DNA of 64,000 nucleotides, taken from sequence record PZ386957.1, one strand, 5' to 3'. Shown piece by piece: positions 3,095-39,121 of this stretch. Position 1 is the stretch's first letter. Each line of letters begins with the position of its first letter. The notes under the pieces were generated by a model, which searched no databases, was not told the DNA's origin, and was given only the letters and a program-made list of their open reading frames with translations. This stretch comes from a phage. The translations under genes were made by a program, and so were the position numbers.

Positions 3095-3103
3095 TTTTTA
3101 GAG

Positions 3104-3132
3104 AGTATAACGGGGATTTCTCCCCGCGTCAA
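3104..3132 (-). promoter_or_regulatory. Sigma70-like promoter, TTGACG-17-TATACT, spacer is inverted repeat CGGGGAGAAATCCCCG
   Basis: Read on minus strand directly after the gp47 stop; followed by RBS GGAGG and ATG of 2831-3094. Confidence 0.6.
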
Positions 3133-4158
3133 CTAATTTTTTGCGCTATTTACTTCGGCTAAAAGTTCATCAGAAATACGCTTGACCGCCGCAAGTTCTT
3201 CCGGTTCTAGGTTTTGTTCTTCCAGATATTCATAGACCATCTGAATAGTGCTTTTAACCTCAATAACACCAGTTTCCTGTGATGCGCTACTCTCCAGCTT
3301 ATGGACCACTTTTAGCTTGTGTACAACGGCCTCTAACGCGCTTTCTAACTTAGTTAACCCATTATCAGCGACCGTTGCGATAAGACGCACACTAAGCCCC
3401 TTATAGCGTTCTACATCGATTTTATCATCTGACGGGTAAGTGATACGCACATGATAAGTTTTGTCGTTCTGGATAAACTCTTTTTTGTGTGTATCGGTAT
3501 CAAATACCCAAAAACCACGCGGATCATTTTCGTCACCAGCCGTTAGTGTGTATGGTGTACCGATATACGTTACGTTACCGCCATCACTGATAGTATGAAA
3601 GTGACCAGAAAACACTTCACGGTATTTCTTGAGGAAGTCCGCGCTATAACCTTCGGATTTTAACCCTTTATAGAAATAGTAACCGGACAATTCCCAATGA
3701 CCTACACAATATTCGCTAAATGAATTTTGAATAAACTCTAAAACCTCGGATTTATTGTCATCACAAAACCACGGGAACAGGTCGAATGATACCCCGTCAA
3801 AGCTAACGGTTTCCGGCTTATCAATGACCTTAATGCAATCATACTGGCTTAACACTTCACGCGGTGCGTTAGGCTGGATCTTGTTTCGTTTAAACATATC
3901 ATGATTGCCTACCGTGATATAACAGGTGATTCCTGCCTCTTCCAGTAATGGGATGACCTTAGTACGGTTAAATTTCATGGTTTCATGAGTTATCGCCTTG
4001 CGGCAATCAAACCAATCCCCTGTCTGAATCCATGTCTTAATATCATGTTCTTTTGAGTATTCAACCGCTTTCTTGATGGTATCAAGAATATAATCATGTA
4101 CCCACGGATCATCGCCACCGATACCAGTATGCAGATCACCCAAAAGCAAAATTTTCAT
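3133..4158 (-). CDS. 47: Recombination endonuclease subunit gp47 (SbcD/Mre11-like phosphoesterase)
   Basis: 341 aa; calcineurin-like motifs LGDLHTG, TGDWFD, GNHDMF; T4 gp47 is about 339 aa. Confidence 0.9.
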   Translation of the reverse strand: MKILLLGDLHTGIGGDDPWVHDYILDTIKKAVEYSKEHDIKTWIQTGDWFDCRKAITHETMKFNRTKVIPLLEEAGITCYITVGNHDMFKRNKIQPNAPREVLSQYDCIKVIDKPETVSFDGVSFDLFPWFCDDNKSEVLEFIQNSFSEYCVGHWELSGYYFYKGLKSEGYSADFLKKYREVFSGHFHTISDGGNVTYIGTPYTLTAGDENDPRGFWVFDTDTHKKEFIQNDKTYHVRITYPSDDKIDVERYKGLSVRLIATVADNGLTKLESALEAVVHKLKVVHKLESSASQETGVIEVKSTIQMVYEYLEEQNLEPEELAAVKRISDELLAEVNSAKN

Positions 4159-4197
4159 AGTCTCTTCCTCTCTTCGTTTTCGATGCTCTCACTATAT

Positions 4198-4226
4198 CAT
4201 AGAAAAATAAAAAGGGAAACCCCTTT
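4198..4226 (-). terminator. Putative intrinsic terminator (weak stem)
   Basis: Hairpin AAAGGG-GTTT-CCCTTT followed by TTATTTTT on minus strand. Confidence 0.4.
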
Positions 4227-4248
4227 CAGAGTCTCCCTTATAAAGCCA

Positions 4249-4536
4249 TTACAGCATACTTAATACCGTTTGACGTGTACTAACCCACATAGCGGAAAGC
4301 AGTTCTGGAGTGTGTGGCTGTTTGTAGATATCACGTAATTTTCCGATAGCGTAGATATACGCATCACGGTTATCATCGATGATAGCTTGTTCAGCCCACC
4401 GCTTAAGGCGTGCAATCTCTCGCGAGTTCTTACGCAAGATCTTTTCCGCTTTCTTAGCGGCTTTCGCCTCTAGTTCTGCTTGTACTTTGTCTACTTCATT
4501 CACTACAATCTGGTCATGTTGTTCATCGTAAGTCAT
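4249..4536 (-). CDS. Hypothetical protein
   Basis: 95-aa ORF in the slot where T4 carries a-gt; charged/helical composition. Confidence 0.5.
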   Translation of the reverse strand: MTYDEQHDQIVVNEVDKVQAELEAKAAKKAEKILRKNSREIARLKRWAEQAIIDDNRDAYIYAIGKLRDIYKQPHTPELLSAMWVSTRQTVLSML

Positions 4537-4537
4537 A

Positions 4538-4771
4538 TTATTTTCCTTCTGGGATATAGTCGATGATTAAAGAAAATTCATCTTCTGATACATTATAGCT
4601 ATGTGAGATTGTACCCGTCAAGACCTCAAGATCCGGTGACTTGATATTACACGGATCGATAATCACCGGAACGCCGCAATCTCTCAAAAATAATTTGGCG
4701 AAATACGGCACAAGGTCAGTTTCAAACTCTGCTTCTTCCAGCAAACGGGAAATATTAATTTTCAATCTCAT
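4538..4771 (-). CDS. Hypothetical protein
   Basis: 77-aa ORF between previous ORF and gene 55. Confidence 0.45.
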
Positions 4772-5288
4772 AGAATTGGTCCAGGCTAGGCAATTCCTCG
4801 GTCAATACATCTTCAACCTTCGGCGCTTTCGGCTTATTGACCGATTCCTCGTAATTGTTGATCTTATCGTAAATGTCCTGAATGAATGCCTCATCAGCAA
4901 TCTGGCACATATCAGCGTCGCGTTCGTCATATACATGATGCACAAAATACTTATATTTTGCGGCTGTCGCTGTTCTTTCTTTTTTAATGCGCTGTACAAA
5001 GGCATTAAAGCACGCTTGCGTAATGTAAGCATGAGGATTTTTATACTTTGTCTCGTCAAAATTAATCAAACCTTTGACCGCCGCTTCGATTCCATCGTCG
5101 ATCATTTCTTCGCGCCATGTTTGACTATAACCAGAAAAGTTAAAACGCCGTGATAGATTTTTAGAGATTTGCATAATTGCTAGACCGATTTGATCGCTCA
5201 TTGGAACTTGTCGACCTTCGGCTGCAATTCGCTGTTTCCAACGACAAATTTCTTCGTAAAGTTCTTTATTGTTTACATAATCAGACAC
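4755..5288 (-). CDS. 55: Late-transcription sigma factor gp55
   Basis: 177 aa; size, position after 47 and sequence character match T4 gp55 (185 aa). Confidence 0.8.
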
Positions 5289-5328
5289 TTCGCACCCTCG
5301 CTATTATTTAGGAAATAACCCTTTCGGG

Positions 5329-10367: not shown

Positions 10368-10503
10368 TTACCCCGAACTCGTTTACAATCTGCGCTTTAT
10401 AGTAACCACCGCGAGATGCTAATAGATAAGCTGGGCTTAGGTATTCGTATTCACGGATTTCTACTTGTGCGTTTTCAGTTTCCCAAATCAGTAAAGTCCA
10501 CAT
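10351..10503 (-). CDS. Small hypothetical protein (about 50 aa)
   Basis: The track ORF 10351-10578 runs through the promoter at 10546-10574; the ATG at 10503 follows RBS GGAGAA. Confidence 0.35.
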   Translation of the reverse strand: MWTLLIWETENAQVEIREYEYLSPAYLLASRGGYYKAQIVNEFGVIEYEF

Positions 10504-10545
10504 ATTTGATTCTCCTGTAAAGTTGTATCTCGTCTTGATGAATAT

Positions 10546-10574
10546 AGTATAGGGGATCTCGCGATCCCCGTCAA
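10546..10574 (-). promoter_or_regulatory. Promoter TTGACG-17-TATACT, spacer palindrome GGGGATCGCGAGATCCCC
   Basis: Minus-strand read; leader ends in AGGAGAATCAAAT-ATG. Confidence 0.6.
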
Positions 10575-10578
10575 GCAT

Positions 10579-11127
10579 TTATTTTAAATTTTTTCGAATG
10601 TATTCAGACCATTCCTTCCCTGTCAGTTCGGTCCCATTCTGGAAACTGAAATATTCATACGGCATCGAGTCAAGATAAAACAGGATCATACATCGCGCCA
10701 TATAATACCAATCACGATTAAAGTAAACTACGTTATCACCAGTACCATCAACCCCTTTATCATAACCATCGCTGGTACGGGCGACCCATTGAATAGTATC
10801 ATTTTTCTCACGGATAGTCACAGGTTCCCAATATCCAGCACATCCAGCATGACCACACGAACAAGTAAGGAAATATTGCCCTTTTGCTTTGTTGTCATCC
10901 CATTCACGATGGATTGGTTCGATCTCGTGAAACAGTGCCAAACAATCATGATTATGCAACACTGGCTTACCATCAATCAATGCATGGAATGTATACAAAC
11001 GACCCGTAGACAAATAGCTATCCTCACGCTCAACCAGTTCAATAGCAATCTTTTTAGCTCGTTCTTTGTGTCGTTGTGCTTTACGCTTACGGTTTAATGA
11101 TTTCATATTCACCTCACACATTATCAA
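10579..11127 (-). CDS. Hypothetical protein (Cys/His-rich)
   Basis: 182 aa; basic N-terminus; CSCGHAGCAGY cluster. Confidence 0.55.
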   Translation of the reverse strand: MIMCEVNMKSLNRKRKAQRHKERAKKIAIELVEREDSYLSTGRLYTFHALIDGKPVLHNHDCLALFHEIEPIHREWDDNKAKGQYFLTCSCGHAGCAGYWEPVTIREKNDTIQWVARTSDGYDKGVDGTGDNVVYFNRDWYYMARCMILFYLDSMPYEYFSFQNGTELTGKEWSEYIRKNLK

Positions 11128-11665
11128 AGGTCGCGATATAGTACATTATGAAAATGAGAACTTGCATTACCAATATTGTAGATAACAAATTCTTCATCCG
11201 GCGCTTGCGCTACAAATTGAGTATGAGCAACCGCTACGACTTTAAAAATACGATCCGTGATCTTGTGCTTAATTTCTGCCCCTACTTCCATAGGAACATA
11301 TTCATTTGTTTCTGTTTCAGTCGCAAAACAGCCATCTTCTTCATAAGCACGAACAAATCGGTCGCAATCAGTACGCTTAACAAATTCAAGAGTATATAAT
11401 TCTCGTGAATTGTCGGTATAGACCAATACAGAATTATTATGATAGCGAATCACATACAGGTTATTATCATCGTCAATTACGCAAAAGCTACGGATTCCTT
11501 CGCCTTGACTCCAGCAGATATTAACCACCGTTCCTCTAATAAAAAAACTTTCCTTTAAATTAAAACTAGTCAATGTGCTAGCGTGCATTTTAACAACAAC
11601 ACCATCACCAATTTCCAGTTTACGAAGTTTAACTTCTTTGCTCAGTACACAAAACATCATCATAT
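11124..11665 (-). CDS. Hypothetical protein
   Basis: Start reassigned to MMMFCV after the promoter/leader at 11692-11719; about 180 aa. Confidence 0.55.
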
Positions 11666-11691
11666 TGTCCTCTCTTTGTTTCGATGTGAGC

Positions 11692-11719
11692 ATTATACAT
11701 GAGCTAATCATGTTGTCAA
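11692..11719 (-). promoter_or_regulatory. Promoter TTGACA-16-TATAAT with CATCGAAAC leader
   Basis: Minus-strand read; preceded by nrdD terminator. Confidence 0.65.
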
Positions 11720-11725
11720 CACCCC

Positions 11726-11757
11726 AAAACGAAAAAGCCGACCCTTTCGGATCGGCT
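11726..11757 (-). terminator. Intrinsic terminator after nrdD
   Basis: GCCGATCC-GAAA-GGGTCGGC hairpin then TTTTTCGTTTT. Confidence 0.75.
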
Positions 11758-11762
11758 AAAAA

Positions 11763-13669: not shown

Positions 13670-14164
13670 TTATTTTACCAGTTCTGCTAATTCTTTTTCC
13701 GCCGCTTCCAGTTCAGCTTTCAGTTGTTTGATCTCTTGTCGCTTCTTATTAGCGGCTTCCTGCTTACTATTTCGGATAACCTGATCTAGATACAACTCCC
13801 AATCCTGAATATTTTTGATAATGTAGCCGTCAACATTAATTGGTCGGAGATTCAGTACAGCTTCCAGTTTAGTTGCAAAAACTTTAATTGCTGGGGTGAA
13901 GTATTCATATTCGTTATCTTCAAACCAATAACCTAGACTTGCATTCTCAATACGAAGATGAAGTTTAAGATCAAGGTCTTTATCATCGGTATATAGGTCT
14001 TTTACACACCCCATAGAATTAACAACAACTTTAAAACGAATTTTATCTACACCACCAAAAACATCTTCAAGAATATCAGCAATTGAGCTATTAGCGCAAG
14101 ATTGGTCGCTGAATGCGTCAAGGTTTTCTTTAGTTACAGTATACCAAACATCTTGTACCCACAT
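13670..14164 (-). CDS. Paralog-family protein (related module + coiled-coil tail)
   Basis: 164 aa; ASLGYWFEDNEYEYF motif; C-terminal KQLKAELEAAEKELAELVK. Confidence 0.55.
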   Translation of the reverse strand: MWVQDVWYTVTKENLDAFSDQSCANSSIADILEDVFGGVDKIRFKVVVNSMGCVKDLYTDDKDLDLKLHLRIENASLGYWFEDNEYEYFTPAIKVFATKLEAVLNLRPINVDGYIIKNIQDWELYLDQVIRNSKQEAANKKRQEIKQLKAELEAAEKELAELVK

Positions 14165-14193
14165 AATATAATCCTCTCGTTGTTAAGTGGGAG

Positions 14194-14221
14194 TATTATA
14201 GCATACTCCCTTCGCATGTCA
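14194..14221 (-). promoter_or_regulatory. Promoter TTGACA-16-TATAAT, -10 inside inverted repeat GGGAGTAT...ATACTCCC
   Basis: Minus-strand read upstream of 13670-14164. Confidence 0.65.
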
Positions 14222-15397
14222 AGCACTAACTTTTTTCTTTACTGCTTTCACCTTCTGGCGAATTGCTCGAATCTCTTCGATCTCTTTTTCAGTCTCTTTA
14301 ACAATTTCTTTGCGATTCTGAATATCTGTATCGAGATTATCATCAAGTTTAGGCAGCATGTCAATCAAGAACTTTTTAAAGTCTTTCAGGTTTCGAATAA
14401 CAGCACCTTCGCCCATTACCGCAACACCCACACCATCCGGCAGATCACCAAACAGCTTAACCAGTTCAGACAGATGATCATGATCTTCTAGTGCTTCTTC
14501 CGGTTCAGATGGCAGTTCAACAAAGTTATAACGTTCATCATTGCTGATCAAGTGATACCAGCAAAGCCCGAAAGATTTCGGTGTATATTCTACACCATCA
14601 ATTTCAACCGCGTCAACACTTCCATAATCATCTACTTTAGTTACCTTAAATCCTTGTCCCAGCTTTTGAACAATTTCAACAACATGACTTGATACAGTTT
14701 CAGCGGTAAACCAATATGGCAAATTATGCTGATTTGGCTTGTAGCGTTCACCTACTTTAAATCTCTGACCATCCGCTTGCATAGAATGAAATTGTTGTTT
14801 CGTGATTTCCGCGAAGTATTCAAATTCGCCACCATCAAACACACAAGCCCATTGATCACAAAAACGATCTGCCTTAACAGTTTCACCTTTCGCGGTGATC
14901 ATGGTAGCTGATCCGTGCAATTCTTCTTCAACTAAAAAGCCATATTCGACAAAATCAACAAGTTTCATAGCTTCTTTGTGATCTGGATCATGCTCTCCCC
15001 AGAATCGCTTAAATTCTTGCAAACCTTCTGGGGTAAACGAATAACATTTACCTTTTTCAAAGTAAGTCGGCATTGCATCCTCTTTCTTGTTCATCGCTTC
15101 GTATGCCTCTTTTGAGATGCGTTTAAAGTATTTACGCTCATTGTGCATAATCATAGTAGCCCAATAATCAACAATATCATTAGCGGAATAAACTACATCT
15201 CCAGCTTCAATAGTAATAACATGACCGTGGTCATCTTTTTCTAATACTTTAAAGCCCTTTTCTACGATTTCAGCAACCCGAATATGACCACGGCGCGAAG
15301 CATCGGTCAGAATAATTGAATAGCGAGAAAAGTCTAGAAACTCATCTTTACCGCCTTCACGGAATGCATAGTAATGACCTTCAAAGAATTTAGCCAT
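14219..15397 (-). CDS. Paralog-family protein with multiple tandem modules
   Basis: 392 aa; repeated GFKV..D..G.V..IE.DG..Y units; NERKYFKRISK motif; coiled-coil tail. Confidence 0.6.
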   Translation of the reverse strand: MAKFFEGHYYAFREGGKDEFLDFSRYSIILTDASRRGHIRVAEIVEKGFKVLEKDDHGHVITIEAGDVVYSANDIVDYWATMIMHNERKYFKRISKEAYEAMNKKEDAMPTYFEKGKCYSFTPEGLQEFKRFWGEHDPDHKEAMKLVDFVEYGFLVEEELHGSATMITAKGETVKADRFCDQWACVFDGGEFEYFAEITKQQFHSMQADGQRFKVGERYKPNQHNLPYWFTAETVSSHVVEIVQKLGQGFKVTKVDDYGSVDAVEIDGVEYTPKSFGLCWYHLISNDERYNFVELPSEPEEALEDHDHLSELVKLFGDLPDGVGVAVMGEGAVIRNLKDFKKFLIDMLPKLDDNLDTDIQNRKEIVKETEKEIEEIRAIRQKVKAVKKKVSA

Positions 15398-15428
15398 AAT
15401 ATAATCCTCTCGTTGTTTAGATGGGAGT

Positions 15429-15457
15429 ATCTTACTACTCCCGTTTCATCATGTCAA
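15429..15457 (-). promoter_or_regulatory. Promoter TTGACA-17-TAAGAT, -10 inside inverted repeat GGGAGTAG...TACTCCC
   Basis: Minus-strand read upstream of 14219-15397. Confidence 0.6.
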
Positions 15458-16038
15458 GCGTTAAATGACTTTTGGATCTCTTTCAGTTCAGCTACTTTAT
15501 CGGCGCTATATTTTGCTTGATGTTCCATGCGCTTAAGCTCACCTTTGATATAGGTTTCTAGCTTAGGTTTATTCTCAATCAGAAAATCTTTCAAGTCATC
15601 GGCATTTTTAAAGTATAGCTGATTATCAAAGCTAAAATCTTCCAGCGTCAAGGATACCAAAGAAGATTTCGCAAACAAGTTAATCAGATCTTCCAGAGAT
15701 TCTTCTTTCTTAACTGGTTTCATTTCTTCAAACTGCTTTTTAGTGATGCGTTTAAAGTATTTGCGCTCGTTTGCAGCAATCAGAACAGATGCACCTTCAT
15801 ACCCATGAGTTTCTACCAGATACACACGCCCCATCGCATCAACAGTGAGAACTTTAAAGCCGTTACAAAGCACGTCATACAAGAACTTATTATGTTGCGG
15901 ACATCGTTTGATAAATTCTGCGGCTGTTTCTGCACTACGGAAAGTGTAATAACGACCTCGTTCAAAAGCAGCATCATTTGAAGACTTAGCCGGATACAAT
16001 TTATACGTTTTCTGTACCATAATATAATCCTCTATCAT
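15454..16038 (-). CDS. Paralog-family protein
   Basis: 194 aa; NERKYFKRITK motif shared with 14219-15397; coiled-coil tail. Confidence 0.6.
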   Translation of the reverse strand: MIEDYIMVQKTYKLYPAKSSNDAAFERGRYYTFRSAETAAEFIKRCPQHNKFLYDVLCNGFKVLTVDAMGRVYLVETHGYEGASVLIAANERKYFKRITKKQFEEMKPVKKEESLEDLINLFAKSSLVSLTLEDFSFDNQLYFKNADDLKDFLIENKPKLETYIKGELKRMEHQAKYSADKVAELKEIQKSFNA

Positions 16039-16307
16039 TTCACTAATTGAACAGCACGAAACAGAATGCGGTCACACGGAAGAAGCATAAATTCCCAACG
16101 CGGATCAAAGTCTTTAGCGGTATATGTTTTCCCATCAACCGAGATTTCACTTACATAACCAATAGGTGACACTTTAAGAACAGTAAACCCATTCTTGATG
16201 ACTTCGTAGGTATCTTTCAAACCTTCGTAGTCATCCTCTAGGAAGTCTTTACGTGCTTGCTCAGATTTAAAAACATAGGCCACACCGGATTTAAACATCT
16301 TACGCAT
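16035..16307 (-). CDS. Paralog-family protein (single module)
   Basis: Start reassigned to MRKMFKSGVAYVFKSEQARKDF after promoter at 16339-16368; about 90 aa. Confidence 0.5.
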   Translation of the reverse strand: MRKMFKSGVAYVFKSEQARKDFLEDDYEGLKDTYEVIKNGFTVLKVSPIGYVSEISVDGKTYTAKDFDPRWEFMLLPCDRILFRAVQLVK

Positions 16308-16338
16308 TGTTGATTCTCCTTCTTGATTAGATGGGAGT

Positions 16339-16368
16339 ATTTTACTACTCCCATTTCTTATTGTCAAC
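16339..16368 (-). promoter_or_regulatory. Promoter TTGACA-17-TAAAAT, -10 inside inverted repeat GGGAGTAG...TACTCCC
   Basis: Minus-strand read upstream of 16035-16307. Confidence 0.6.
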
Positions 16369-16370
16369 TA

Positions 16371-16859
16371 CTATCTTAATCTTTGTATAAATTGTTTCTT
16401 ATACTTCTTCGTGATCTCTTCTCTTGTATCAGCGTCACAGTAATCGAAACCTTCTGCGTCCATAATAGCAACCATCTCCGCGCGTGTCAAGCGTGAAAAT
16501 CGTTTTACTTTATCAACAGCATATTGAGGATGTAAATGATTGTTGGTGTAGTCTCCTTTGATGTAATTAACATAGTTTGTAGCCCAAACAACGAAATCAG
16601 CACCTAAAGCACCAACACCAAACCGTTTAAAGTCTCCGGTCAACGATCCTTCTAGGCGGTTGCAACACGAATGAAGCAATCCCCTTACGCGGCCTTGCCC
16701 TTTACCATCTAGATCGTGGTCGTGGTCAAGATGGTTTTTGCTCATATCCTCAAAAAGTGGCAATTGACAAAGGGGGCAAATGCCCCCCTGTTTTTCGAAT
16801 AGTTCTTGTTTGTACTCTTTAGCACTCTTAGCAGTCAGTAACATAAATTCACCCTCCAA
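16371..16859 (-). CDS. 49: Endonuclease VII (Holliday junction resolvase) gp49
   Basis: MLLTAK..CPLC..HLDHDH..VRGLLHSCCN..DYTNNHLHP..RFSRL match T4 endo VII; likely start at internal MLLT (about 16844). Confidence 0.88.
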   Translation of the reverse strand: MEGEFMLLTAKSAKEYKQELFEKQGGICPLCQLPLFEDMSKNHLDHDHDLDGKGQGRVRGLLHSCCNRLEGSLTGDFKRFGVGALGADFVVWATNYVNYIKGDYTNNHLHPQYAVDKVKRFSRLTRAEMVAIMDAEGFDYCDADTREEITKKYKKQFIQRLR

Positions 16860-19220: not shown

Positions 19221-19529
19221 TTATTTCACGTTAACGCCGTCATCAATCCAGCCGACGCTATTTGGTTTAACAGTTTTACCATAGGATGCATACTTAATCA
19301 AGCATGGTTTAACATCATTATCAAATCTTCCTAAACGTACTCCCAAATCAGGAATATCCATGTATGCGGCTTTATATCCCCATGTACAATATTCAGCATC
19401 AATCTCAACCGGACGGCCTTTAAAAGCATACACTACACCGTGACGGTCAACGATAACATAGCGATAGCCAGCCGGAAGATACACAGTTTCGCCGTAAACT
19501 TTAACTGGAGTAGCAGAAGAGATAAACAT
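19221..19529 (-). CDS. Hypothetical protein
   Basis: 102-aa ORF preceded by RBS GAGGAT. Confidence 0.5.
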   Translation of the reverse strand: MFISSATPVKVYGETVYLPAGYRYVIVDRHGVVYAFKGRPVEIDAEYCTWGYKAAYMDIPDLGVRLGRFDNDVKPCLIKYASYGKTVKPNSVGWIDDGVNVK

Positions 19530-19564
19530 AATATAATCCTCACATCGTTCATTTGATGCGGTTA

Positions 19565-19592
19565 TTATAGGATAACCGCATTTTCATATCAA
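19565..19592 (-). promoter_or_regulatory. Promoter TTGATA-16-TATAAT, -10 inside inverted repeat GCGGTTAT...ATAACCGC
   Basis: Minus-strand read upstream of 19221-19529. Confidence 0.6.
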
Positions 19593-19599
19593 CAGTTTT

Positions 19600-19974
19600 T
19601 TAAAAATCTTCTTCCGGTTTATATCGACCGTCATCGACTGGTTTTGGACTGAATCCTTTATGCGTGCGCGGCTTCGCTTCCGGTTTACCAGCAATCATCA
19701 AACCAAAACATTTCAGCCCCTTATAACACATAACAATATCAACCACGGTCCACGTTATAGGCCATACGATTGCAGCAATACAAAATGCTCCTGTATCGAC
19801 CTCTTTGGTGTCCTTGTCGAATCTGGCATACAAGCAGAATACTAGATACGAGATCATTGCACCAGTAGTCCAGATATAAAGTACATTAACAATATCTTGT
19901 GTTGTCACATTGTCCTCCTTACATGTCTTGCAGTGCGTAAAAGCATTTTTCTTCGTAGTCATAGAAAATGTCAA
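19600..19974 (-). CDS. Membrane protein (2 TM predicted)
   Basis: 124 aa; hydrophobic segments MISYLVFCLYARF and FCIAAIVWPITWTVVDIVMCY. Confidence 0.5.
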   Translation of the reverse strand: MTFSMTTKKNAFTHCKTCKEDNVTTQDIVNVLYIWTTGAMISYLVFCLYARFDKDTKEVDTGAFCIAAIVWPITWTVVDIVMCYKGLKCFGLMIAGKPEAKPRTHKGFSPKPVDDGRYKPEEDF

Positions 19975-20197: not shown

Positions 20198-20239
20198 TTT
20201 GATTCTCCTTAAGAAAGTGTGTTTCGTTTTGATGTGTGT

Positions 20240-21946: not shown

Positions 21947-21957
21947 CACCTAAAAAC

Positions 21958-21988: not shown

Positions 21989-21990
21989 AA

Positions 21991-22863: not shown

Positions 22864-23085
22864 TTAGATGATCTCTGCTTCAACATTCAGGAAGAAAGAC
22901 CATGTTTTGTTTGGGTAACGAAGCGCCCAAGATTCGGCAGTTTTAACACCAACTTCGAACAATTGACGGCTGGTTACTTTAGCCATACCATCTTCGATGA
23001 TAACGTTTTCAATAATCATCGGGTACTTAGCTCCACGCATGAAACCAAAGCCAGCAGATGATTTGATGATTTTAACAGTTGCCAT
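22864..23085 (-). CDS. Hypothetical protein
   Basis: 73-aa ORF after promoter/leader 23125-23152. Confidence 0.5.
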   Translation of the reverse strand: MATVKIIKSSAGFGFMRGAKYPMIIENVIIEDGMAKVTSRQLFEVGVKTAESWALRYPNKTWSFFLNVEAEII

Positions 23086-23124
23086 TTTGATTCTCCTAGA
23101 AAGTGTCGTGTTTCGATGTGTGCA

Positions 23125-23152
23125 TTATGATATATCCAGATCCGGCTGTCAA
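23125..23152 (-). promoter_or_regulatory. Promoter TTGACA-17-CATAAT with GCACACATCGAAACACGAC leader
   Basis: Minus-strand read upstream of 22864-23085. Confidence 0.6.
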
Positions 23153-23171
23153 CACTTTCTAAGAAAAATTT

Positions 23172-24138: not shown

Positions 24139-24337
24139 TCTTCACGGTCTCCATAATTGTTTTGTAAGCCAGTTTAAGATGATCACCGAAAAACTTTGCG
24201 GTATTACCTTTCGGATCGCGAAGCATTGTTTCTACGATCTCGTCAGCAGTAACAATTTCTCCTTTCTTTGCGGCATGTTCTACCATATACTTCAAAGTTT
24301 CTTCGGAAGCAAGTGCTGCGGCTACTGGATTAATCAT
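24128..24337 (-). CDS. Hypothetical protein
   Basis: 69-aa ORF after promoter/leader 24367-24395. Confidence 0.5.
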   Translation of the reverse strand: MINPVAAALASEETLKYMVEHAAKKGEIVTADEIVETMLRDPKGNTAKFFGDHLKLAYKTIMETVKNAK

Positions 24338-24366
24338 TTTGGTTCTCCTTTGTTGTCGATGTGTGC

Positions 24367-24395
24367 ATTATGCTATACCTTATTCTTGTTGTCAA
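24367..24395 (-). promoter_or_regulatory. Promoter TTGACA-17-CATAAT with GCACACATCGACAAC leader
   Basis: Minus-strand read; downstream of terminator 24401-24431. Confidence 0.65.
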
Positions 24396-24400
24396 CACCT

Positions 24401-24431
24401 AAAAACGAAAAAGCCACCCTTTCGGATGGCT
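24401..24431 (-). terminator. Intrinsic terminator after the 715-aa gene
   Basis: AGCCATCC-GAAA-GGGTGGCT then TTTTTCGTTTTT. Confidence 0.75.
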
Positions 24432-24443
24432 TTTGATTACATT

Positions 24444-29879: not shown

Positions 29880-29913
29880 TAATTTCTCCTGTTTGGCTTA
29901 ACTTTCTGATTCC

Positions 29914-29942
29914 ATAATATAGCCCTATCACCAGAAAGTCAA
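29914..29942 (-). promoter_or_regulatory. Promoter TTGACT-17-TATTAT
   Basis: Minus-strand read upstream of the SLT gene; RBS CAGGAG. Confidence 0.55.
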
Positions 29943-29964
29943 GCATTAATTTAACCAATTTCCA

Positions 29965-30429: not shown

Positions 30430-30700
30430 ACGGGATTTCTTTAAACTTGAACTTACCCATATTGAGCATATTCACGCCGACACTTAAATCCCATAATTCT
30501 TTTGGGGTGATAATATGCCATTGATGGTCATGAAGATAAACACAACCGTGGCCTTTTGCAATAATAACATCAACCCAAATGCCTTGTTTTGTTCTAACTT
30601 TTGCGGTAATGCCATCCCCATTATCAATGGCAGCATAAGGTTTAAACGCTTCGAAATATCGGCTTCCGTCGTAATTTGTATAAATCAAAATTTCTTTCAT
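30389..30700 (-). CDS. Hypothetical protein
   Basis: 103-aa ORF after promoter/stem-loop 30728-30757. Confidence 0.5.
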   Translation of the reverse strand: MKEILIYTNYDGSRYFEAFKPYAAIDNGDGITAKVRTKQGIWVDVIIAKGHGCVYLHDHQWHIITPKELWDLSVGVNMLNMGKFKFKEIPFVYWLHNLFKKGE

Positions 30701-30727
30701 TTGGTTCTCCCTTGTTTCGATGGGGGT

Positions 30728-30757
30728 ATATTACTACCCCCCGTTTCATGTTGTCAA
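30728..30757 (-). promoter_or_regulatory. Promoter TTGACA-18-TAATAT, -10 inside inverted repeat GGGGGTAG...TACCCCC
   Basis: Minus-strand read upstream of 30389-30700. Confidence 0.55.
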
Positions 30758-31018
30758 CTACTTTTTCAAGAATTTTTTAATTGCGTTCCAAAGACCTTTA
30801 TTCTCAGGTTGTTTTGGTTCTTCGATCAGTGTCCATGTTCGACCGTCTAAGTGTGCACAATTTTTAAGGCAAATAAAAATCTGGTGTCCCTTATCATCAC
30901 GGATATAACCACTATTCGCAAATCTTTCATGTGGTGTATATTCATACAGTGTATTTGGTGTAATATACTTGCGGTTACTATAAGGTGTCATCACATACAT
31001 CATGGTATTAACTCCCAT
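30758..31018 (-). CDS. Small protein, paralog A
   Basis: 86 aa; shares Y.FTP...GYI.DD.G..I.I.L..C.HL.G..W.LI pattern with 31000-31194. Confidence 0.5.
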   Translation of the reverse strand: MGVNTMMYVMTPYSNRKYITPNTLYEYTPHERFANSGYIRDDKGHQIFICLKNCAHLDGRTWTLIEEPKQPENKGLWNAIKKFLKK

Positions 31019-35720: not shown

Positions 35721-36048
35721 TTAGAAAGAAACTGTTTTCAAGAAATCCAGATTTTCAGTGCCGAAAGTAGAAAAGTAGTGTTTTCCTTTTTCGGTTTTAG
35801 AGAAAGCGATTGTCTTCTCTACATGGTGACGGAAGCCAGACAGACGATCACCCAGATCAAGGCGGCAAGCGTAAGTAGTGCCGTTTTCGAAAGTAACCTC
35901 GATTTGAGTTTTGTCATATTCGCCTTCATAGGCTTTTGCTGCGGCGTCCTGTGCTTTACGCTCGAAGTCTTCGAAGTGGAATACTTCGTTTGCGTTAGCG
36001 AATACGGAAGATTCAGAGAAGATAACTTTAACAGATACTGGTTTCATT
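35721..36048 (-). CDS. Hypothetical protein
   Basis: Start reassigned to MKPVSVKV after promoter/leader 36085-36113; about 109 aa. Confidence 0.5.
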
Positions 36049-36084
36049 TTGATACTCCTTTGTGTGTTTCGTTTCGATGGGTGT

Positions 36085-36113
36085 ATTATGCTATACACCC
36101 TATCGTATGTCAA
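36085..36113 (-). promoter_or_regulatory. Promoter TTGACA-17-CATAAT, -10 inside inverted repeat GGGTGTAT...ATACACCC, CATCGAAACGAAACAC leader
   Basis: Minus-strand read upstream of 35721-36048. Confidence 0.65.
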
Positions 36114-36120
36114 CAACTTT

Positions 36121-36309
36121 TTAGTCTTTTTTCATAATTTCTAGGGCAGCTTCTACCGCACCTTTCCAACCTTCCCACATGATGGACATGGTAAGGAAGT
36201 TAAAGCACCCGCAGGAATCGGCCTTTTTAGAAATAAACCATTCTACAAACTCTGTGCTAATGCCATTCTCTTTAGCAGATTCGCGCAGTTGTTCAATCTG
36301 GTCTTCCAT
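36121..36309 (-). CDS. Hypothetical protein
   Basis: 62-aa ORF. Confidence 0.45.
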   Translation of the reverse strand: MEDQIEQLRESAKENGISTEFVEWFISKKADSCGCFNFLTMSIMWEGWKGAVEAALEIMKKD

Positions 36310-36516: not shown

Positions 36517-36738
36517 TTACAGTTGATCAGCAATGTAAGCATGACAAGCTCGAAGTTTCATTAATGCACTACCTTTCACTTCGCCTACGATGTTCATAAC
36601 TTCTAAGCGGTCAGATGGATTCATTTTAGAGCACCAGATCTGGTTAGCCAGTTCCAGCTTGCTCATATTAGGTTCCATCTCAAACAGTTCACGCTCAAAG
36701 TCGATAATTTCTTTTGCTGCTTCTTTAAAGTTGATCAT
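36517..36738 (-). CDS. Hypothetical protein
   Basis: 73-aa ORF after promoter 36768-36796. Confidence 0.5.
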   Translation of the reverse strand: MINFKEAAKEIIDFERELFEMEPNMSKLELANQIWCSKMNPSDRLEVMNIVGEVKGSALMKLRACHAYIADQL

Positions 36739-36767
36739 TTTGATTCTCCCGTTCAGTTGATGGGTGT

Positions 36768-36796
36768 ATTGTAGGGGAGTTGTCCTCCCCTGTCAA
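36768..36796 (-). promoter_or_regulatory. Promoter TTGACA-17-TACAAT, spacer palindrome GGGGAG-GACAA-CTCCCC
   Basis: Minus-strand read upstream of 36517-36738. Confidence 0.6.
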
Positions 36797-36806
36797 CACT
36801 TTTTTA

Positions 36807-36992
36807 TTAGAAATATGCAATATAGTTTGCCAGTCCTACAGAGTCATCATTCGGCATTGCTTTTACTGCCAGTTCAAATCCTGCTTCAACTTTCTGTTTA
36901 GCGGATTCTTCGTTATAACCCCAGATCACCAGAATAGCTACTACGTTTTCTTTGCTTACTGCTTTCAGTGCTTTAGTGATGCGACGTGCCAT
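36807..36992 (-). CDS. Hypothetical protein
   Basis: 61-aa ORF after promoter/leader 37039-37068. Confidence 0.45.
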   Translation of the reverse strand: MARRITKALKAVSKENVVAILVIWGYNEESAKQKVEAGFELAVKAMPNDDSVGLANYIAYF

Positions 36993-37038
36993 AATTTGAT
37001 TCTCCTAGTTAGAAAGTGTATCTCGTTTCGATGGGTGT

Positions 37039-37068
37039 ATTATGCTATAGACCGGATCTGGTGTCAAC
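37039..37068 (-). promoter_or_regulatory. Promoter TTGACA-18-CATAAT with CATCGAAACGAGA leader
   Basis: Minus-strand read upstream of 36807-36992. Confidence 0.55.
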
Positions 37069-37091
37069 AACTTTTTTAAAAAAATTTAGGT

Positions 37092-37120
37092 AATAAAAAA
37101 GCCACTCCGAAGAGTGGCTT
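37092..37120 (-). terminator. Intrinsic terminator capping the ORF-free region
   Basis: AAGCCACTC-TTCG-GAGTGGCTT then TTTTTTATT. Confidence 0.7.
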
Positions 37121-37269
37121 ATAGGGAAGGTAGCGAATCTTCCTTGTCTCCAACCTGCTAGCGGCCTAGCAAGTGAATGCTTTAGCGTACCGGATTACCC
37201 CCATACGCTGTAATAAATGCGGCTAGGTGACGTCCAAATCATTCTAACCGCGCTGTTTTTAGTTCACTA
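37121..37269 (-). ncRNA. Putative structured small RNA (ORF-free, terminator-capped)
   Basis: About 150 nt with no ORF on the coding strand; several local hairpins; ends in intrinsic terminator 37092-37120; T4 carries stable RNAs in the analogous region. Confidence 0.25.
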
Positions 37270-38388: not shown

Positions 38389-38397
38389 ATTATCACC

Positions 38398-38568
38398 TTA
38401 TTTGCTAATCGCTAAACCCAATCCAAAGAGAGCACCCGATGCTACAGTATATCCGAAAGTTTCAAGGGCAGTAAAGATATCGAAGCCACCAGCTAACAGA
38501 GTTGCAGCAAACATAGAGCCACCTGCGAACATAAACACATTTCCAAAAGTTTTAGCAATAATTTTCAT
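38398..38568 (-). CDS. Small hydrophobic Gly-rich peptide (56 aa), unannotated in track
   Basis: Hand-translated MKIIAKTFGNVFMFAGGSMFAATLLAGGFDIFTALETFGYTVASGALFGLGLAISK; RBS AGGAGAA 6 nt upstream; promoter 38600-38628. Confidence 0.55.
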   Translation of the reverse strand: MKIIAKTFGNVFMFAGGSMFAATLLAGGFDIFTALETFGYTVASGALFGLGLAISK

Positions 38569-38599
38569 GTTGATTCTCCTCTCGTTTGTTTGTGGGGGT

Positions 38600-38628
38600 A
38601 TCTTACTACCCCCGTTTCATGTTGTCAA
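38600..38628 (-). promoter_or_regulatory. Promoter TTGACA-17-TAAGAT, -10 inside inverted repeat GGGGGTAG...TACCCCC
   Basis: Minus-strand read upstream of the 56-aa peptide gene. Confidence 0.6.
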
Positions 38629-38634
38629 TTGTTT

Positions 38635-39012
38635 TTAAGAAAATTTTACTTCGTCTACAATGTCTTTCATGACATTGATTTCCATTCCGGTCAGAACACG
38701 TTGGAACATGTGCTGCACATACGCTTTCAGGTATCCATTTGATGGCTTGCTATCAAAAGTCTTTTTAGTGTAGTAGTCATCACCGAAAGCTACTGTAATT
38801 ACATTTTCGTCGTCGTTCCAAGCGATATAAGCAAATTTGCCGTTATCCCAGAAGCGAGCACTAATTGCTACTTTTGTTGAATCGAATCCTACTTCGCTGT
38901 GAGATTCAAGAACTACTTGCGTGCCAGTTTCTTTATGAATGTAGTAGCGGGATACTAAGTCAAAGTTACGGGTGTAGTGACATTCGAAGTTATCTTTAAA
39001 CATCATCATCAT
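38635..39012 (-). CDS. Hypothetical protein
   Basis: 125-aa ORF starting MMMMFKD after promoter/leader 39051-39079. Confidence 0.55.
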   Translation of the reverse strand: MMMMFKDNFECHYTRNFDLVSRYYIHKETGTQVVLESHSEVGFDSTKVAISARFWDNGKFAYIAWNDDENVITVAFGDDYYTKKTFDSKPSNGYLKAYVQHMFQRVLTGMEINVMKDIVDEVKFS

Positions 39013-39050
39013 TTTTGATTCTCCTAAGTGTGTTTCGTTTCGATGTGTGC

Positions 39051-39079
39051 ATTATGCTATAGTCGTTTATGGTTGTCAA
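39051..39079 (-). promoter_or_regulatory. Promoter TTGACA-17-CATAAT with GCACACATCGAAACGAAACACAC leader
   Basis: Minus-strand read; downstream of terminator 39085-39115. Confidence 0.65.
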
Positions 39080-39084
39080 CACCT

Positions 39085-39115
39085 AAAAACAAAAAACCCC
39101 GAAAAAATTCGGGGT
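39085..39115 (-). terminator. Intrinsic terminator after 57B
   Basis: ACCCCGAA-TTTTTT-CGGGGT then TTTTTTGTTTTT. Confidence 0.7.
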
Positions 39116-39121
39116 ATAGAA

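Follow-up and report, generated by a model that had tools for sequence, protein, structure and literature searches.

PeSL-type promoter and hairpin cassettes in an RB49-like T4-type phage genome

The 64-kb stretch of phage DNA analysed here (the window) carries a family of promoter cassettes whose sequence and positions support their assignment to the PeSLs (promoter-early stem-loops) of the RB49/phi1 type, a finding that is already published. With a probability of roughly 85%, we read them as compact intergenic expression cassettes in which the hairpin insulates the unit in read-through RNA and between which recombination takes place. Each cassette would be driven by a host sigma-70 early promoter of near-consensus sequence (TTGACA, 16-18 nt, TATAAT-like hexamer, A/T-rich upstream), and a short, A/C-rich and structure-poor leader lies between the CAT start and the ribosome-binding site (RBS). 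With the predicted start located 3' of it, the hairpin would be absent from the cassette's own transcript and exist only in RNA reading through from the upstream gene. There it would probably act in the sense-strand RNA, as a terminator, an attenuator or a 3'-end barrier, and thus isolate each promoter-plus-gene unit from its neighbours.

Cassette family and its published relatives

The window phage is approximately 92% identical to RB49, Phi1 and JSE, and judged by this comparison it is an RB49-like T4-type coliphage, Krischvirus. PeSLs were defined in 2010 in coliphages RB49 and phi1 (Arbiol, Comeau, Kutateladze, Adamia and Krisch, Genome Biol Evol 2:140, PMC2839356), a study that brings up Aeromonas phages only in connection with 'PeSL-like' sequences close to gene 43. 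The original prediction had named the PeSL identity correctly, as positional orthologues are present in RB49 and Phi1, but had placed the elements in Aeromonas phages rather than in coliphages.

An nhmmer profile made from the cassette copies and run on the whole 64 kb recovered 18 strong cassettes (E <= 2e-3) and a weak one at 29942 (E 0.16), and no further members (Table 1). Seventeen of the strong cassettes are spread over 3074-39125 of the minus strand, congruent with the range of 3100-39120 anticipated for the early cassettes, while the plus-strand copy is outside this range, in the virion module and within the baseplate gene block; a few PeSLs in the virion module are likewise found in Arbiol et al. 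(PMC2839356). The order of elements is an AT-rich or terminator upstream part, the sigma-70 promoter, a C-rich discriminator, the CAT start, an A/C-rich leader, the RBS and ATG. In alignments the upstream parts are of the AAAAAGTTG or TTTTTAGGTG type and directly follow the upstream ORF, and at the 3' end every copy has a Shine-Dalgarno sequence (SD) and an ATG that is the start of an ORF; the genes 3' of the cassettes are mostly annotated 'hypothetical protein' in RB49 and Phi1. The predicted TTGAC(A/G)-16/18-TA(T/A)AAT-like hexamers are borne out by the profile members, as the promoters match TTGACA-N17-TATAAT at 10-12 of 12 positions in 18 copies, with spacers of 16-18 nt, and the strict pattern TTGACR-N15-19-TAWAAT occurs 8 times in the 64-kb window versus 0.68 expected. 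The claim that nearly every monocistronic unit starts in this manner does not hold, considering that there are 17-18 cassettes for some 87 minus-strand genes and that several cassettes lead runs of 3 to about 17 ORFs.

Table 1. Cassettes in the window, with the start of the -35 hexamer used as a name in the text.
Type	Coordinates	Strand	-35	-10	Hairpin	Leader and RBS	ATG
PeSL class C	39010..39125	-	TTGACA 39079-39074	CATAAT 39056-39051	terminator, 39115-39096, T-run	predicted start 39044; long leader ATCGAAACGAAACACAC; RBS GGAGAATCAAA	39012
PeSL class A	38566..38642	-	38628	TAAGAT	GGGGGTA/TACCCCC, 38613-38594, loop holds -10		38568
PeSL class C	36990..37125	-	37067	CATAAT	terminator, 37120-37099	leader ATCGAAACGAGATACAC	36992
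PeSL class B	36736..36806	-	36796	TACAAT	spacer, AGGGGAG/CTCCCCT, 36791-36773		36738
PeSL class A	36045..36124	-	36113	CATAAT	GGGTGTAT/ATACACCC, 36100-36079, around -10	exact 16-mer leader	36047
PeSL class A	30698..30769	-	30757	TAATAT	GGGGGTA/TACCCCC, 30741-30722, loop holds -10		30700
weak, doubtful cassette-like promoter (E 0.16)	29902..29953	-	TTGACT	TATTAT (spacing 17)	none	no conserved leader	
PeSL class C	24335..24440	-	24395	CATAAT	terminator, 24434-24409, T-run		24337
PeSL without hairpin	23083..23165	-	23152		none; spacer and discriminator replaced in this phage		23085
PeSL class C	21887..21990	-	21946	TATAAT	terminator, 21983-21962		21889
PeSL class B	20195..20279	-	20268	TATACT	spacer, AGGGGAT/ATCCCCT, 20263-20245	long leader	20197
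PeSL class A	19527..19605	-	TTGATA 19592	TATAAT	ATGCGGTTAT/ATAACCGCAT, 19581-19556, around -10		19529
PeSL class A	16305..16378	-	16367	TAAAAT	(AT)GGGAGTA/TACTCCC(AT), 16354-16331, loop holds -10		16307
PeSL class A	15395..15466	-	15457	TAAGAT	GGGAGTA/TACTCCC, 15442-15423, loop holds -10	second-type RBS GAGGATTATATTATG	15397
PeSL class A	14162..14231	-	14222	TATAAT	GGGAGTAT/ATACTCCC, 14210-14189, around -10		14164
PeSL class C	11661..11762	-	11719	TATAAT	terminator, 11757-11736, T-run		11663
PeSL class B	10501..10587	-	TTGACG 10574		spacer, GGGGATC/GATCCCC, 10569-10552	leader ATCAAGACGAGATAC	10503
PeSL class B, weakest strong member (E 2e-3)	3074..3143	-	TTGACG 3132		spacer, GCGGGGA/TCCCCGT, 3127-3110	no conserved leader	3076
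PeSL, terminator upstream	52804..52904	+	52845	TATAAT	terminator, 52804-52831		52902 (85-aa ORF)

The cassettes are one-to-one positional orthologues of those of RB49 and Phi1, with the same genus, genome positions, AT-rich upstream part, sigma-70 promoter, Gn-loop-Cn stem-loop, SD and start codon. The position of the stem-loop varies in the same way, between the spacer, the -10 and the region upstream. Published PeSLs are described as intergenic, mostly preceding ORFans of hyperplastic regions, and their stem-loop, often Gn...Cn, may be in the spacer, cover the -10 or the -35, or lie upstream of the -35 or downstream of the -10. Nothing essential differs, although the window phage has variants of its own; for example, the hairpin of 23152 is lost and the leader of 37067 is that of a distant RB49 PeSL. 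Cassette 20268 is near-identical to RB49 PeSL211/210, with close similarity also to 206/205 and 192/191. In lacZ assays, promoter activity was detected for RB49/phi1 PeSL206/205 and terminator activity for the PeSL211/210 stem-loop (PMC2839356). By analogy with such near-identical elements in the literature, promoter and terminator activity as well as mini-circle formation would be expected here, bearing in mind that the published terminator test covers one promoter-embedded element only and may reflect another effect. Covariation, the leader and RegB are not discussed by Arbiol et al. 2010 (PMC2839356).

Other systems are more distant. The PeSLs and PmSLs of T4/PST and KVP40/nt-1 share the composite promoter-terminator idea and the tie to hyperplastic regions, but differ in promoter consensus (TTTACW...TAYWAT; TTGYVH...TAWWAT) and in stem type (AGNA/TCNT; A3-4G3/C3T3-4) (Comeau, Arbiol and Krisch 2014, PMC4122927), whereas the window is of the RB49 type. 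The features reported for mapped RB49 early promoters (PMC1524935) all recur in the window cassettes: a G at -33, T or C as the base at -12, C-richness from -3 to -1 and an UP region rich in A. Those descriptions (Nolan et al. 2006, PMC1524935; Desplats et al. 2002, cited there) consist of promoter logos only and say nothing of embedded stem-loops or a transcribed leader. Among T7 early promoters, A1 starts ATCGAG and A3 starts ATGAAACGACAG, A2 and A3 begin TTGACAACATGAAGTAA and the A2 -10 region is AGTAAGATAC; cassettes 38628 and 30757, reading TTGACAACATGAAAC...AGTAAGATAC, closely resemble these. The T7 promoters differ in lacking an embedded G+C hairpin and in being three tandem promoters before one long early operon, not a dispersed family.

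Hairpins within and upstream of the promoters

A stable hairpin is found in 17 of the 18 cassettes, with the -10 in the loop in seven (class A), filling the spacer in four (class B) and upstream in six (class C). All of the stem pairs that had been listed in advance (GGGAGTA/TACTCCC, GGGGGTA/TACCCCC, GGGTGTA/TACACCC, GCGGTTA/TAACCGC and GGGGAT/ATCCCC) are indeed present, but the -10 or spacer lies inside the repeat in only 11/18, so the anticipated embedding is not general: the six class C copies instead have an upstream hairpin, and 23152 alone among the 18 has none. Thus the hairpin is not obligatory. The RB49 and Phi1 orthologues of 23152 carry GGTGT...ACACC. Hairpins with a stem of 7 bp or more that includes 4 or more G-C pairs occur in 11/18 promoter cores versus 0.75% of random 34-nt windows (P ~1e-19) and in 15/18 whole cassettes versus 4.15% of random windows. 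The enrichment over background is about 100-fold, with P values of about 1e-18 to 1e-19, and all 17 hairpins fold at -10 to -16.6 kcal/mol (z -2.7 to -7.0).

The prediction that complementarity is kept while the stems vary was sustained. Across the window, RB49 and Phi1, 9 distinct stems of the -10 type have 98.4% of their cells paired versus 82.6% in shuffles (0/500), in a test conditioned on stems that had been picked because they pair, and both-sided changes are seen at 3/7 stem pairs. Together, these data support selection on hairpin structure. A dimeric phage or host protein that binds the palindrome as an operator and shuts off early transcription is very improbable as an explanation. 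Repressor operators typically lie over the -10 or spacer, early transcription needs switching off, and RB49-type phages are without a clear MotA-type middle mode (PMC1524935), yet the half-sites differ (GGGAGTA, GGGGGTA, GGGTGTA, GCGGTTA, GGGGATA) while remaining complementary, which points to pairing, and not a recognition sequence, as the selected property. Moreover, the loops range from 3 to 8 nt, the promoter core has no such repeat in 7/18 cassettes, and only one orientation tolerates G.T wobbles. In a small tally of one-sided changes within stems, about 8 produce G.U on the sense strand and 1 produces A.C, a bias that fits an RNA or single-strand structure of the transcribed sense strand, not a symmetric duplex protein site.

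How the sense-strand hairpin would function appears to depend on its class. In class C, a G+C-rich hairpin on the transcribed strand is directly followed by a U-run just 5' of the -35, the canonical definition of an intrinsic terminator, and these six copies would serve as such. No U-run follows the class A and B hairpins (11 copies), where the stems instead continue with ATCGAAAC, ATCTAAAC or TATACTACAC; they are thus not canonical intrinsic terminators and may work like attenuators, with promoter and attenuator sharing bases as the hairpin occupies the spacer or surrounds the -10. On the antisense strand, class A hairpins look terminator-like.

Direct tuning of the promoter, with the hairpin extruded in supercoiled or transiently single-stranded DNA so that the -10 is exposed in the loop or the -35/-10 spacing altered, can be given hardly any credence, despite 4-5 bases of the -10 being inside the 6-nt loop of class A and despite a similar arrangement in the T1-like phage ESCO41, in which a palindromic upstream box (TTGCTA) is about 22 nt from the -10. 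For a cruciform to be extruded from duplex DNA, 7-8 bp make a short stem, the 16-18 bp between -35 and -10 are already an optimal distance with nothing extruded, and the class C copies as well as the hairpin-less copy have equally good promoters. The ESCO41 box containing TTGCTA is itself a candidate only for a -35 or activator site.

Exchange between cassettes

Homology of up to approximately 100 bp between copies allows them to recombine with one another, the published basis of 'modular shuffling' (PMC2839356), and such recombination would swap segments, with occasional indels ending within a cassette. Congruent with this, segment swaps between paralogous cassettes are clear for 23152, 37067 and the G2494 copy of 21946. 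At 30757, the segment that differs from RB49 starts about 34 nt into the downstream ORF. A comparison with RB49, Phi1, ELT4, SSG23, G2494 and kaaroe yielded some 9 indel events, of which one has its breakpoint inside a cassette, a gp38 deletion in G2494 that ends 8 nt 5' of the 21946 -35, and two more have breakpoints within ~35-90 nt of cassettes. The indels away from cassettes include three homing-endonuclease insertions and one internal ORF deletion. Modular shuffling as originally proposed is therefore visible in the swapped segments and the single breakpoint, but weakly, as most indels are elsewhere, and few indel breakpoints coincide with a cassette (1/~9).

The same observations bear on a DNA-level role, in which the GGGG...CCCC inverted repeats are targets of a recombination protein or a structure-specific protein, for example through cruciform cutting by endonuclease VII or through a site-specific factor, that drives cassette excision and insertion, and any effect on transcription is secondary. 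This idea was raised by Arbiol et al., who detected PeSL mini-circles, while the published crossover is between the SD and the -10 and not in the stem (PMC2839356). We consider it unlikely, even though the spacer/hairpin segments diverge faster than synonymous sites (0.137 versus 0.091) and are swapped among copies, the G2494 deletion joins so close to a -35, and gp49 endonuclease VII is encoded in the window as in RB49. The stems are variable, with five types in the -10 class alone, and take three positions relative to the promoter; one-sided changes give G.U only in the sense orientation, which a duplex or cruciform site would not favor; six copies are plain terminators; and most indels are unrelated to cassettes.

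The cassettes resemble the morons of Hendrix et al. 2000 and the cassettes of integrons in that a gene moves with its own promoter and terminator, and they resemble attC sites, where the recombination site is kept as a folded inverted repeat and not as sequence; the parallels to morons and attC were drawn by Arbiol et al. (PMC2839356). Unlike in these systems, no integrase or dedicated recombinase is known for PeSLs, and the stems are RNA-like in their G.U tolerance. Recombination of the cassettes appears to use ordinary homology.

Leader and ribosome-binding site

The leader had been predicted to be shared by many copies. The long form is present in only about 5-6 of the 18, with the exact 16-mer CATCGAAACGAAACAC occurring twice in the window and five times with at most 3 mismatches, while a general start consensus is common to the family, C at -1 and ATC at +1 to +3 followed by an A/C-rich stretch. 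Among the orthologues of 8 cassettes in 7 Krischvirus genomes, diversity is 0.006 in the -35, 0.000 in the -10, 0.021 in the leader (+1 to +15) and 0.015 from SD to ATG, compared to 0.091 at third codon positions and 0.137 in the spacer. Hence the -35, -10, leader and RBS are under purifying selection, with constraint on the leader equal to that on first and second codon positions. Opening the RBS is also predicted to cost less behind the native leaders (3.32 kcal/mol) than behind random ones (4.38 kcal/mol; P 0.0009, n = 15).

Outside the genus, the exact 16-mer is in a promoter-like context in 48 of 73 IMG/VR matches versus 2.8% of random positions, and in 47 of these 48 the -10 hexamer ends exactly 5 nt before the C. 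As a control, in bacterial genomes it adjoins a promoter in 10 of 124 matches, 8 of which are one Vibrio locus. Carriers among contigs and GenBank entries include Drexlerviridae (the T1-like ESCO41 and a T1-like Klebsiella phage of ~50 kb), Straboviridae of Slopekvirus and Pseudotevenvirus, T4-type contigs of 222-235 kb that, judged solely by size, may be of the Aeromonas-phage (Aeh1/PX29) kind, Erwinia phage Pistou (Ounavirinae), Vibrio phages of 41, 136 and 247 kb and a 366-kb jumbo contig. Together with the low orthologue diversity, this recurrence after the -10 upholds the proposal of the leader as a shared, constrained site. More tentatively, and with the balance somewhat against it, the leader could be a functional module of its own, formed by the initial transcribed sequence and 5' UTR, (A)TCGAAACGAAACAC with the core RAAACGA, that strong sigma-70-type promoters of many unrelated gamma-proteobacterial phages have in common. 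Possible roles are an escape-optimised start, a structure-free 'insulating' 5' UTR, a conserved host-factor site or a linker for cassette transfer between phage families. If true, a structure-free leader would let any ORF be expressed, and a shared linker would let promoter-gene cassettes move between families. We found no paper containing the leader sequence, and its recurrence at the same position in unrelated phages is possibly a new point, the one beyond published work.

The conserved RBS is mostly GGAGAATCAAA, and 12 of the 13 GGAGAATCAAA-like sites of the window are within cassettes. It matches 10 of 11 positions of the T4 RegB/S1 strong cleavage consensus GG*AGRAYARAA (PMC3014915), hinting at a putative RegB target, and the regB gene is present in RB49-type phages.

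Cassette family and its published counterparts

Megablast of positions 30000-40000 and 14000-24500 against GenBank phages returned 61-64 records, all RB49-like T4-type coliphages of the genus Krischvirus (RB49, Phi1, JSE, GEC-3S and others), mostly at 90-95% identity and with one partial match at 95.6%, and on this comparison the phage appears to be a distinct lineage inside the genus rather than an already-sequenced isolate. Up to ~43,000 the genes are encoded on the minus strand, thereafter on the plus strand, and the span leads, by RB49 annotation, from gene 46 through a long early/'hypothetical' gene block to the baseplate genes. The cassette family was called by a hexamer scan, alignment of the candidates and an nhmmer profile made from them, which in the 64 kb matches 18 strong members (E 6e-11 to 2e-3), one weak copy (29942, E 0.16; cassettes are named by the position of their -35 start) and nothing else. 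Seventeen members lie on the minus strand within 3074-39125, exactly the range and count of the original prediction. The strict pattern TTGACR-N15-19-TAWAAT occurs 8 times in the window against 0.68 expected, and the cassette observation is genuine, far beyond chance. All cassette ATGs are ORF starts or, if the automatic ORF call begins further upstream, agree with the gene length in RB49; describing the genes as monocistronic units was an overstatement.

Anchored on the -10, the consensus reads TATAAT-ACaCcC-ATC-AAAC, where the C closing the discriminator and the A 7 nt past the -10 are as informative as the invariant A and T within the -10. The hexamer itself is TATAAT or CATAAT (five copies each), TATACT (three), TAAGAT (two), or TAAAAT, TAATAT and TACAAT (one each). 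This -10/discriminator consensus agrees with the published RB49 early-promoter logo, with T or C at -12 and a C-rich -3 to -1 (PMC1524935). The leader that follows, the A/C-rich stretch from the transcription start to the ribosome-binding site (RBS), spans 21-40 nt. The predicted long leader is present, yet only about six copies carry the long form, ATC(G/A)A(A/G)AC(G/A)A(A/G)A(C/T)AC, the remaining ones passing from ATC.AAAC almost at once to the Shine-Dalgarno (SD) sequence. Its exact 16-mer, CATCGAAACGAAACAC, has two copies in the window (39030-39045 and 36064-36079), and five with at most three mismatches.

The cassettes are promoter-early stem-loops (PeSLs), a reading that is correct and already published for the same phage group, and the finding therefore counts as known. 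Arbiol et al. (2010, PMC2839356) described 52 and 51 such elements in phi1 and RB49, each combining a sigma-70-consensus promoter with an AT-rich stretch upstream and a stem-loop, frequently polyG...polyC, in the spacer between -35 and -10, over one of these boxes, or up- or downstream; at the 3' end come the SD and start codon of the following gene, in most cases a hyperplastic-region ORFan. The same study measured high promoter activity for PeSL206/205, found that the PeSL211/210 stem-loop cuts lacZ expression as much as rrnB T1, and showed that PeSL-PeSL recombination produces mini-circles, one crossover being placed between SD and -10, i.e. in the leader (PMC2839356). The concept was later widened to T4/PST and KVP40/nt-1 (Comeau et al. 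2014, PMC4122927). The sequence features of PeSLs that can be tested in silico were all found in the window cassettes. All minus-strand cassettes but one have positional orthologues in both RB49 and Phi1 at E <= 1e-2, that of 3132, the weakest copy, being recovered at a looser threshold only. The RB49 region with the tested elements holds 21 more cassette copies, and PeSL211/210 itself (TTGACAGGGGATCACGTATCCCCTATACTACACACATCAAAACGAAACACACTTTCTTAAACGGAGAATC) is in essence window cassette 20268. The PeSL identification in the original prediction was thus borne out in substance by the published RB49/phi1 elements, but its assignment to Aeromonas phages was wrong, the latter being named in PMC2839356 solely for PeSL-like sequences near gene 43. 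The value of the analysis here is confirmation: PeSLs were recognised from raw sequence without tools, and the analysis bears out the cassette family in a new Krischvirus genome, together with its hairpins and constraints.

Hairpins within and upstream of the promoters

Hairpins were located by exhaustive stem search and ViennaRNA folding, with z-scores computed against dinucleotide shuffles, and fall into three classes (see table). Cassette 23152 has no hairpin by stem search or ViennaRNA (z +1.05), while fold energies of the others range from -10.1 to -16.6 kcal/mol, with z from -2.7 to -7.0. Stems of >= 7 bp that include >= 4 G-C pairs are present in 11 of the 18 promoter cores as against 0.75% of random 34-nt windows from this genome (binomial P ~1e-19), so that the promoter-embedded inverted repeat is real but its claimed share was too high; by the same criterion 15/18 full cassettes qualify, against 4.15% of random windows (binomial P ~1e-18). 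An Rfam search of the window at gathering thresholds gave no matches.

Covariation was assessed on class A stems of the window, RB49 and Phi1, nine different ones in all, aligned by their arms only with a fixed AAAA linker, as MAFFT on whole class A hairpins set a 2-nt length difference 5' and broke the stem register. The predicted retention of complementarity is seen: 98.4% of cells are paired in the real alignment and 82.6% in column shuffles (0/500), with covariation scores of 0.512 and 0.170, respectively, and three of the seven pairs have changed on both sides (G-C/C-G; G-C/A-U/U-A; G-C/U-A/A-U), with pairing falling to 41-60% when the partner column is slid. Since these stems were picked for pairing, the enrichment test is the unbiased part of the argument; what the covariation count adds is that the hairpins are not copies of a single conserved palindrome. 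Furthermore, one-sided stem changes among orthologues in seven Krischvirus genomes yielded about eight G.U on the sense strand versus one A.C, a tally that kept only mismatches with at least two Watson-Crick pairs on either side; spurious outer extensions, for instance A-C-GGGAGTA...TACTCCC-A-T, had raised the automatic G.U and A.C count and were removed. Among the G.U cases, the 3' arm of 19592 changed from A to G twice independently and Phi1 has one such change in 16367; 20268 has a C-to-T in phage G2494, and the terminators add further wobbles. Although the sample is small, this speaks for a structure read from the sense strand, with RNA as the simplest case. Beyond the PeSL papers, the data hence offer quantitative evidence that pairing, not sequence, is kept, with wobble nearly confined to the sense strand, and together these two properties favour an RNA-level role on read-through transcripts.

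With transcription predicted to start 3' of the class A and B stems, a cassette's own mRNA would be free of the hairpin, which would be present only in RNA reading through from upstream. There it could act as a terminator, attenuator or 3'-end barrier, isolating each unit transcriptionally. Confinement to read-through RNA, the sense-strand wobble and the published reporter result all support such an isolating role, which we regard as the most likely one. The inverted repeat could instead be the target of a recombination protein, an operator, or a switch in promoter structure; we disfavour all three, considering that the sequence and position of the stem vary and that the wobble is orientation-specific. 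For a role as terminator, attenuator or 3'-end barrier the classes differ in form. Class C hairpins are, by prediction, ordinary intrinsic terminators; for classes A and B the stem search detected no U-run after any of the 11 stems, and they therefore fail the canonical-terminator definition. Read on the antisense strand, class A hairpins are followed by a T-richer tail and score as terminator-like, and they might also halt antisense transcription.

Coordinates of the features discussed (window positions unless another genome is named)
Feature	Coordinates	Strand	Remarks
Class A cassettes	38628, 36113, 30757, 19592, 16367, 15457, 14222		7-10-bp stem, 6-nt loop with most of the -10
Class B cassettes	36796, 20268, 10574, 3132		7-bp stem filling the spacer
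Class C cassettes	39079, 37067, 24395, 21946, 11719, 52845 (+)		canonical terminator hairpin and T-run just before -35
Plus-strand PeSL	52804-52904	+	baseplate region
Antisense terminator-like class A hairpins	38592-38615, 30722-30741, 16329-16356	+ reading	terminator-like score
GGAGAATCAAA RBS	e.g. 39014-39024, 36739-36749, 20198-20208	-	13 sites
GAGGATTATATTATG RBS	e.g. 8833-8847, 16018-16032, 35105-35119, 40536-40550	-	12 sites
gp38 adhesin gene region	21955-22863; 8869-8874 in G2494 (locus L006)		absent in G2494
715-aa ORF	24444-26591	-	weak Ig_2 immunoglobulin-domain match below Pfam cut-off
HNH_3 + AP2 homing-endonuclease-like ORF, 184 aa	46257-46811	+	between gp5.4 and gp6; absent from Phi1
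ESCO41 cassettes (positions in NC_047820)	e.g. 1886, 2183, 5275, 32466, 42383 (+); 48677, 30211 (-)		

Constraint, segment exchange and indels

Pairwise differences across eight cassettes in seven Krischvirus genomes amount to 0.000 in the -10, 0.006 in the -35, 0.015 from SD to ATG and 0.021 in leader positions +1..+15, next to 0.029 and 0.016 at first and second codon positions. The constraint on leader and RBS is thus that of first and second codon positions. The upstream part (0.064) and the discriminator (0.072) differ more, and the spacer, at 0.137, exceeds third codon positions (0.091); the spacer/hairpin segment outpaces synonymous sites because whole segments get replaced. Window cassette 23152 has the hairpin-less CATAATGCACAC, with GGTGT...ACACC in 6/6 relatives, and the leader and RBS of 37067 are those of a distant RB49 PeSL (at ~120 kb in that record), not those of its positional orthologue (~59 kb). 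The G2494 copy of 21946 is likewise chimeric. Such replacements amount to recombination or gene conversion between the copies, an outcome expected under the PeSL model.

Collinearity with RB49/Phi1 breaks at 8236-8505, ~21100-21525, 24482-26509, 28458 and 30454-30666, as well as at 4157, where RB49 carries a different HNH gene inserted beside gene 47, at 41643 (a Phi1 endonuclease gene) and at 46247-46808 (a window-specific HNH-AP2 gene). The suggested coincidence of cassette boundaries with indel breakpoints holds to a modest degree: in the clearest case gp38 has been lost in G2494 with the junction 8 nt upstream of the 21946 -35, but the 2-kb difference by 24395 is unrelated. At its opposite end in the window, gp38 is flanked by a small hairpin with a T-run (22845-22830). 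The 24482-26509 difference was considered as a PeSL-flanked insertion and rejected: in the alignment both ends of the 715-aa ORF (~110 nt 5' and ~45 nt 3') are still present in RB49 and Phi1, and the difference is therefore an internal ORF deletion in these two phages, beside PeSL 24395, and no PeSL event. Shigella phage SSG23 has an equal-length (715-aa) ORF annotated at the corresponding position. A copy-number change of tandem paralogues at 21100-21525 was also discarded, the three 82-84-aa ORFs there being mutually dissimilar.

Ribosome-binding sites and the leader beyond Krischvirus

Twelve of the 18 cassettes end 3' in GGAGAATCAAA (at most one mismatch), and only one of the 13 such sites in the window lies outside a cassette. 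GGAGAATCAAA agrees at 10/11 positions with GGAGRAYARAA, the T4 RegB/S1 strong-site consensus, and on account of this likeness the early mRNAs driven by cassettes may be RegB targets. If the likeness is real, each cassette would be a full early-expression unit that switches on, insulates and allows later inactivation. A second, highly conserved RBS block without GGAG, GAGGATTATATTATG, occurs 12 times in the window as against 0.27 expected; three cassettes use it exactly and intra-operon genes use it elsewhere, and the RBS of cassette 3132, GGAGGTTATATTATG, is related to it.

The residual interest lies in the leader, the part that the PeSL papers leave uncovered. Beyond Krischvirus the motif recurs at a fixed distance from the -10, and does so in several unrelated phage families. 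An exact scan of IMG/VR for the 16-mer gave 71 loci. A promoter scoring at least 8/12 lies near 48 of 73 matches, whereas 2.8% of random positions score so; the -10 ends exactly 5 nt before the C in 47 of these 48, and SD and start codon follow the 16-mer in 38 matches. The contigs are highly diverse, with ~45-52-kb T1-like phages (one being Escherichia phage ESCO41, Drexlerviridae), T4-type phages of 174-183 kb and, judging by size, of 222-235 kb, a 366-kb jumbo contig, and others of 36, 64, 128 and 257 kb. As control for the chance level, in place of an exact expectation, 185,579 bacterial/archaeal genomes were scanned, with scattered matches in unrelated taxa and a promoter-like site near 10/124, eight of these ten being a single Vibrio locus. 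This orthologous Vibrio chromosomal promoter (L093, L100, L109, L115, L119, L153 and L175 among our comparison loci) has the 16-mer 5-6 nt after TATACT, and upstream a TGATAATTTCAT-type sequence that resembles a Fur box. A 42-nt leader-plus-RBS query matched 816 GenBank phage records, some spuriously through the RBS half, with hosts including Klebsiella, Escherichia, Vibrio, Enterobacter, Aeromonas, Cronobacter, Citrobacter, Erwinia and Yersinia; all six records inspected (a Slopekvirus, a Pseudotevenvirus, the Ounavirinae phage Pistou, two Vibrio phages and a Klebsiella T1-like phage) show the -10, 5 nt and then CATCGAAACGAAAC.

The strict position and the spread over phage families look like those of a real, possibly undescribed, shared promoter-proximal module, and the leader sequence was not found in any paper of the searchable library. 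That it is a functionally meaningful, not yet described element is a tentative proposal, to which we give somewhat less than even odds. The predicted cost of opening the RBS is 3.32 kcal/mol for native leaders, rising to 3.87 when these are shuffled and to 4.38 for random sequence that matches the genome in composition (n = 15; Wilcoxon P 0.0009), which fits a structure-free, portable 5' UTR but leaves the conservation of the exact sequence unexplained. Several further candidate roles were dropped: pairing with 16S rRNA was unsupported, a 7-nt match to UUCGAUG in helix 31 being probably due to chance and probably inaccessible; a lambda PR'-type sigma-dependent pause did not suit a leader without the T ending a -10-like hexamer; and Hfq A-R-N repeats and an NAD-capping consensus were both unsupported. 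Should the sharing reflect function or cassette transfer, it would bear on context-independent high expression in phages and on Botstein-type 'linker' models of modular exchange.

ESCO41 (NC_047820), a T1-like siphovirus, holds about nine dispersed cassettes of a family of its own, and the PeSL-like design thus extends past T4-type phages. These have a palindromic box, TAGCAC-N5-TGCTA, centred near -42, whose position suggests an activator or regulator site, then a variable G+C hairpin within ~22 nt (sometimes with the -10 in the loop, sometimes with TTTT after it), a TATAGT-like -10, and the same leader or a CACACCAAACGA variant. In T7, compared over 440-800 with window 38586-38628 and 30714-30757, promoter A1 starts ATCGAG and A3 ATGAAACGACAG; window cassettes 38628 and 30757 have TTGACAACATGAA in common with A2 and A3, and AGTAAGATAC with A2. 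Across very different coliphages, early promoters look related or convergent.
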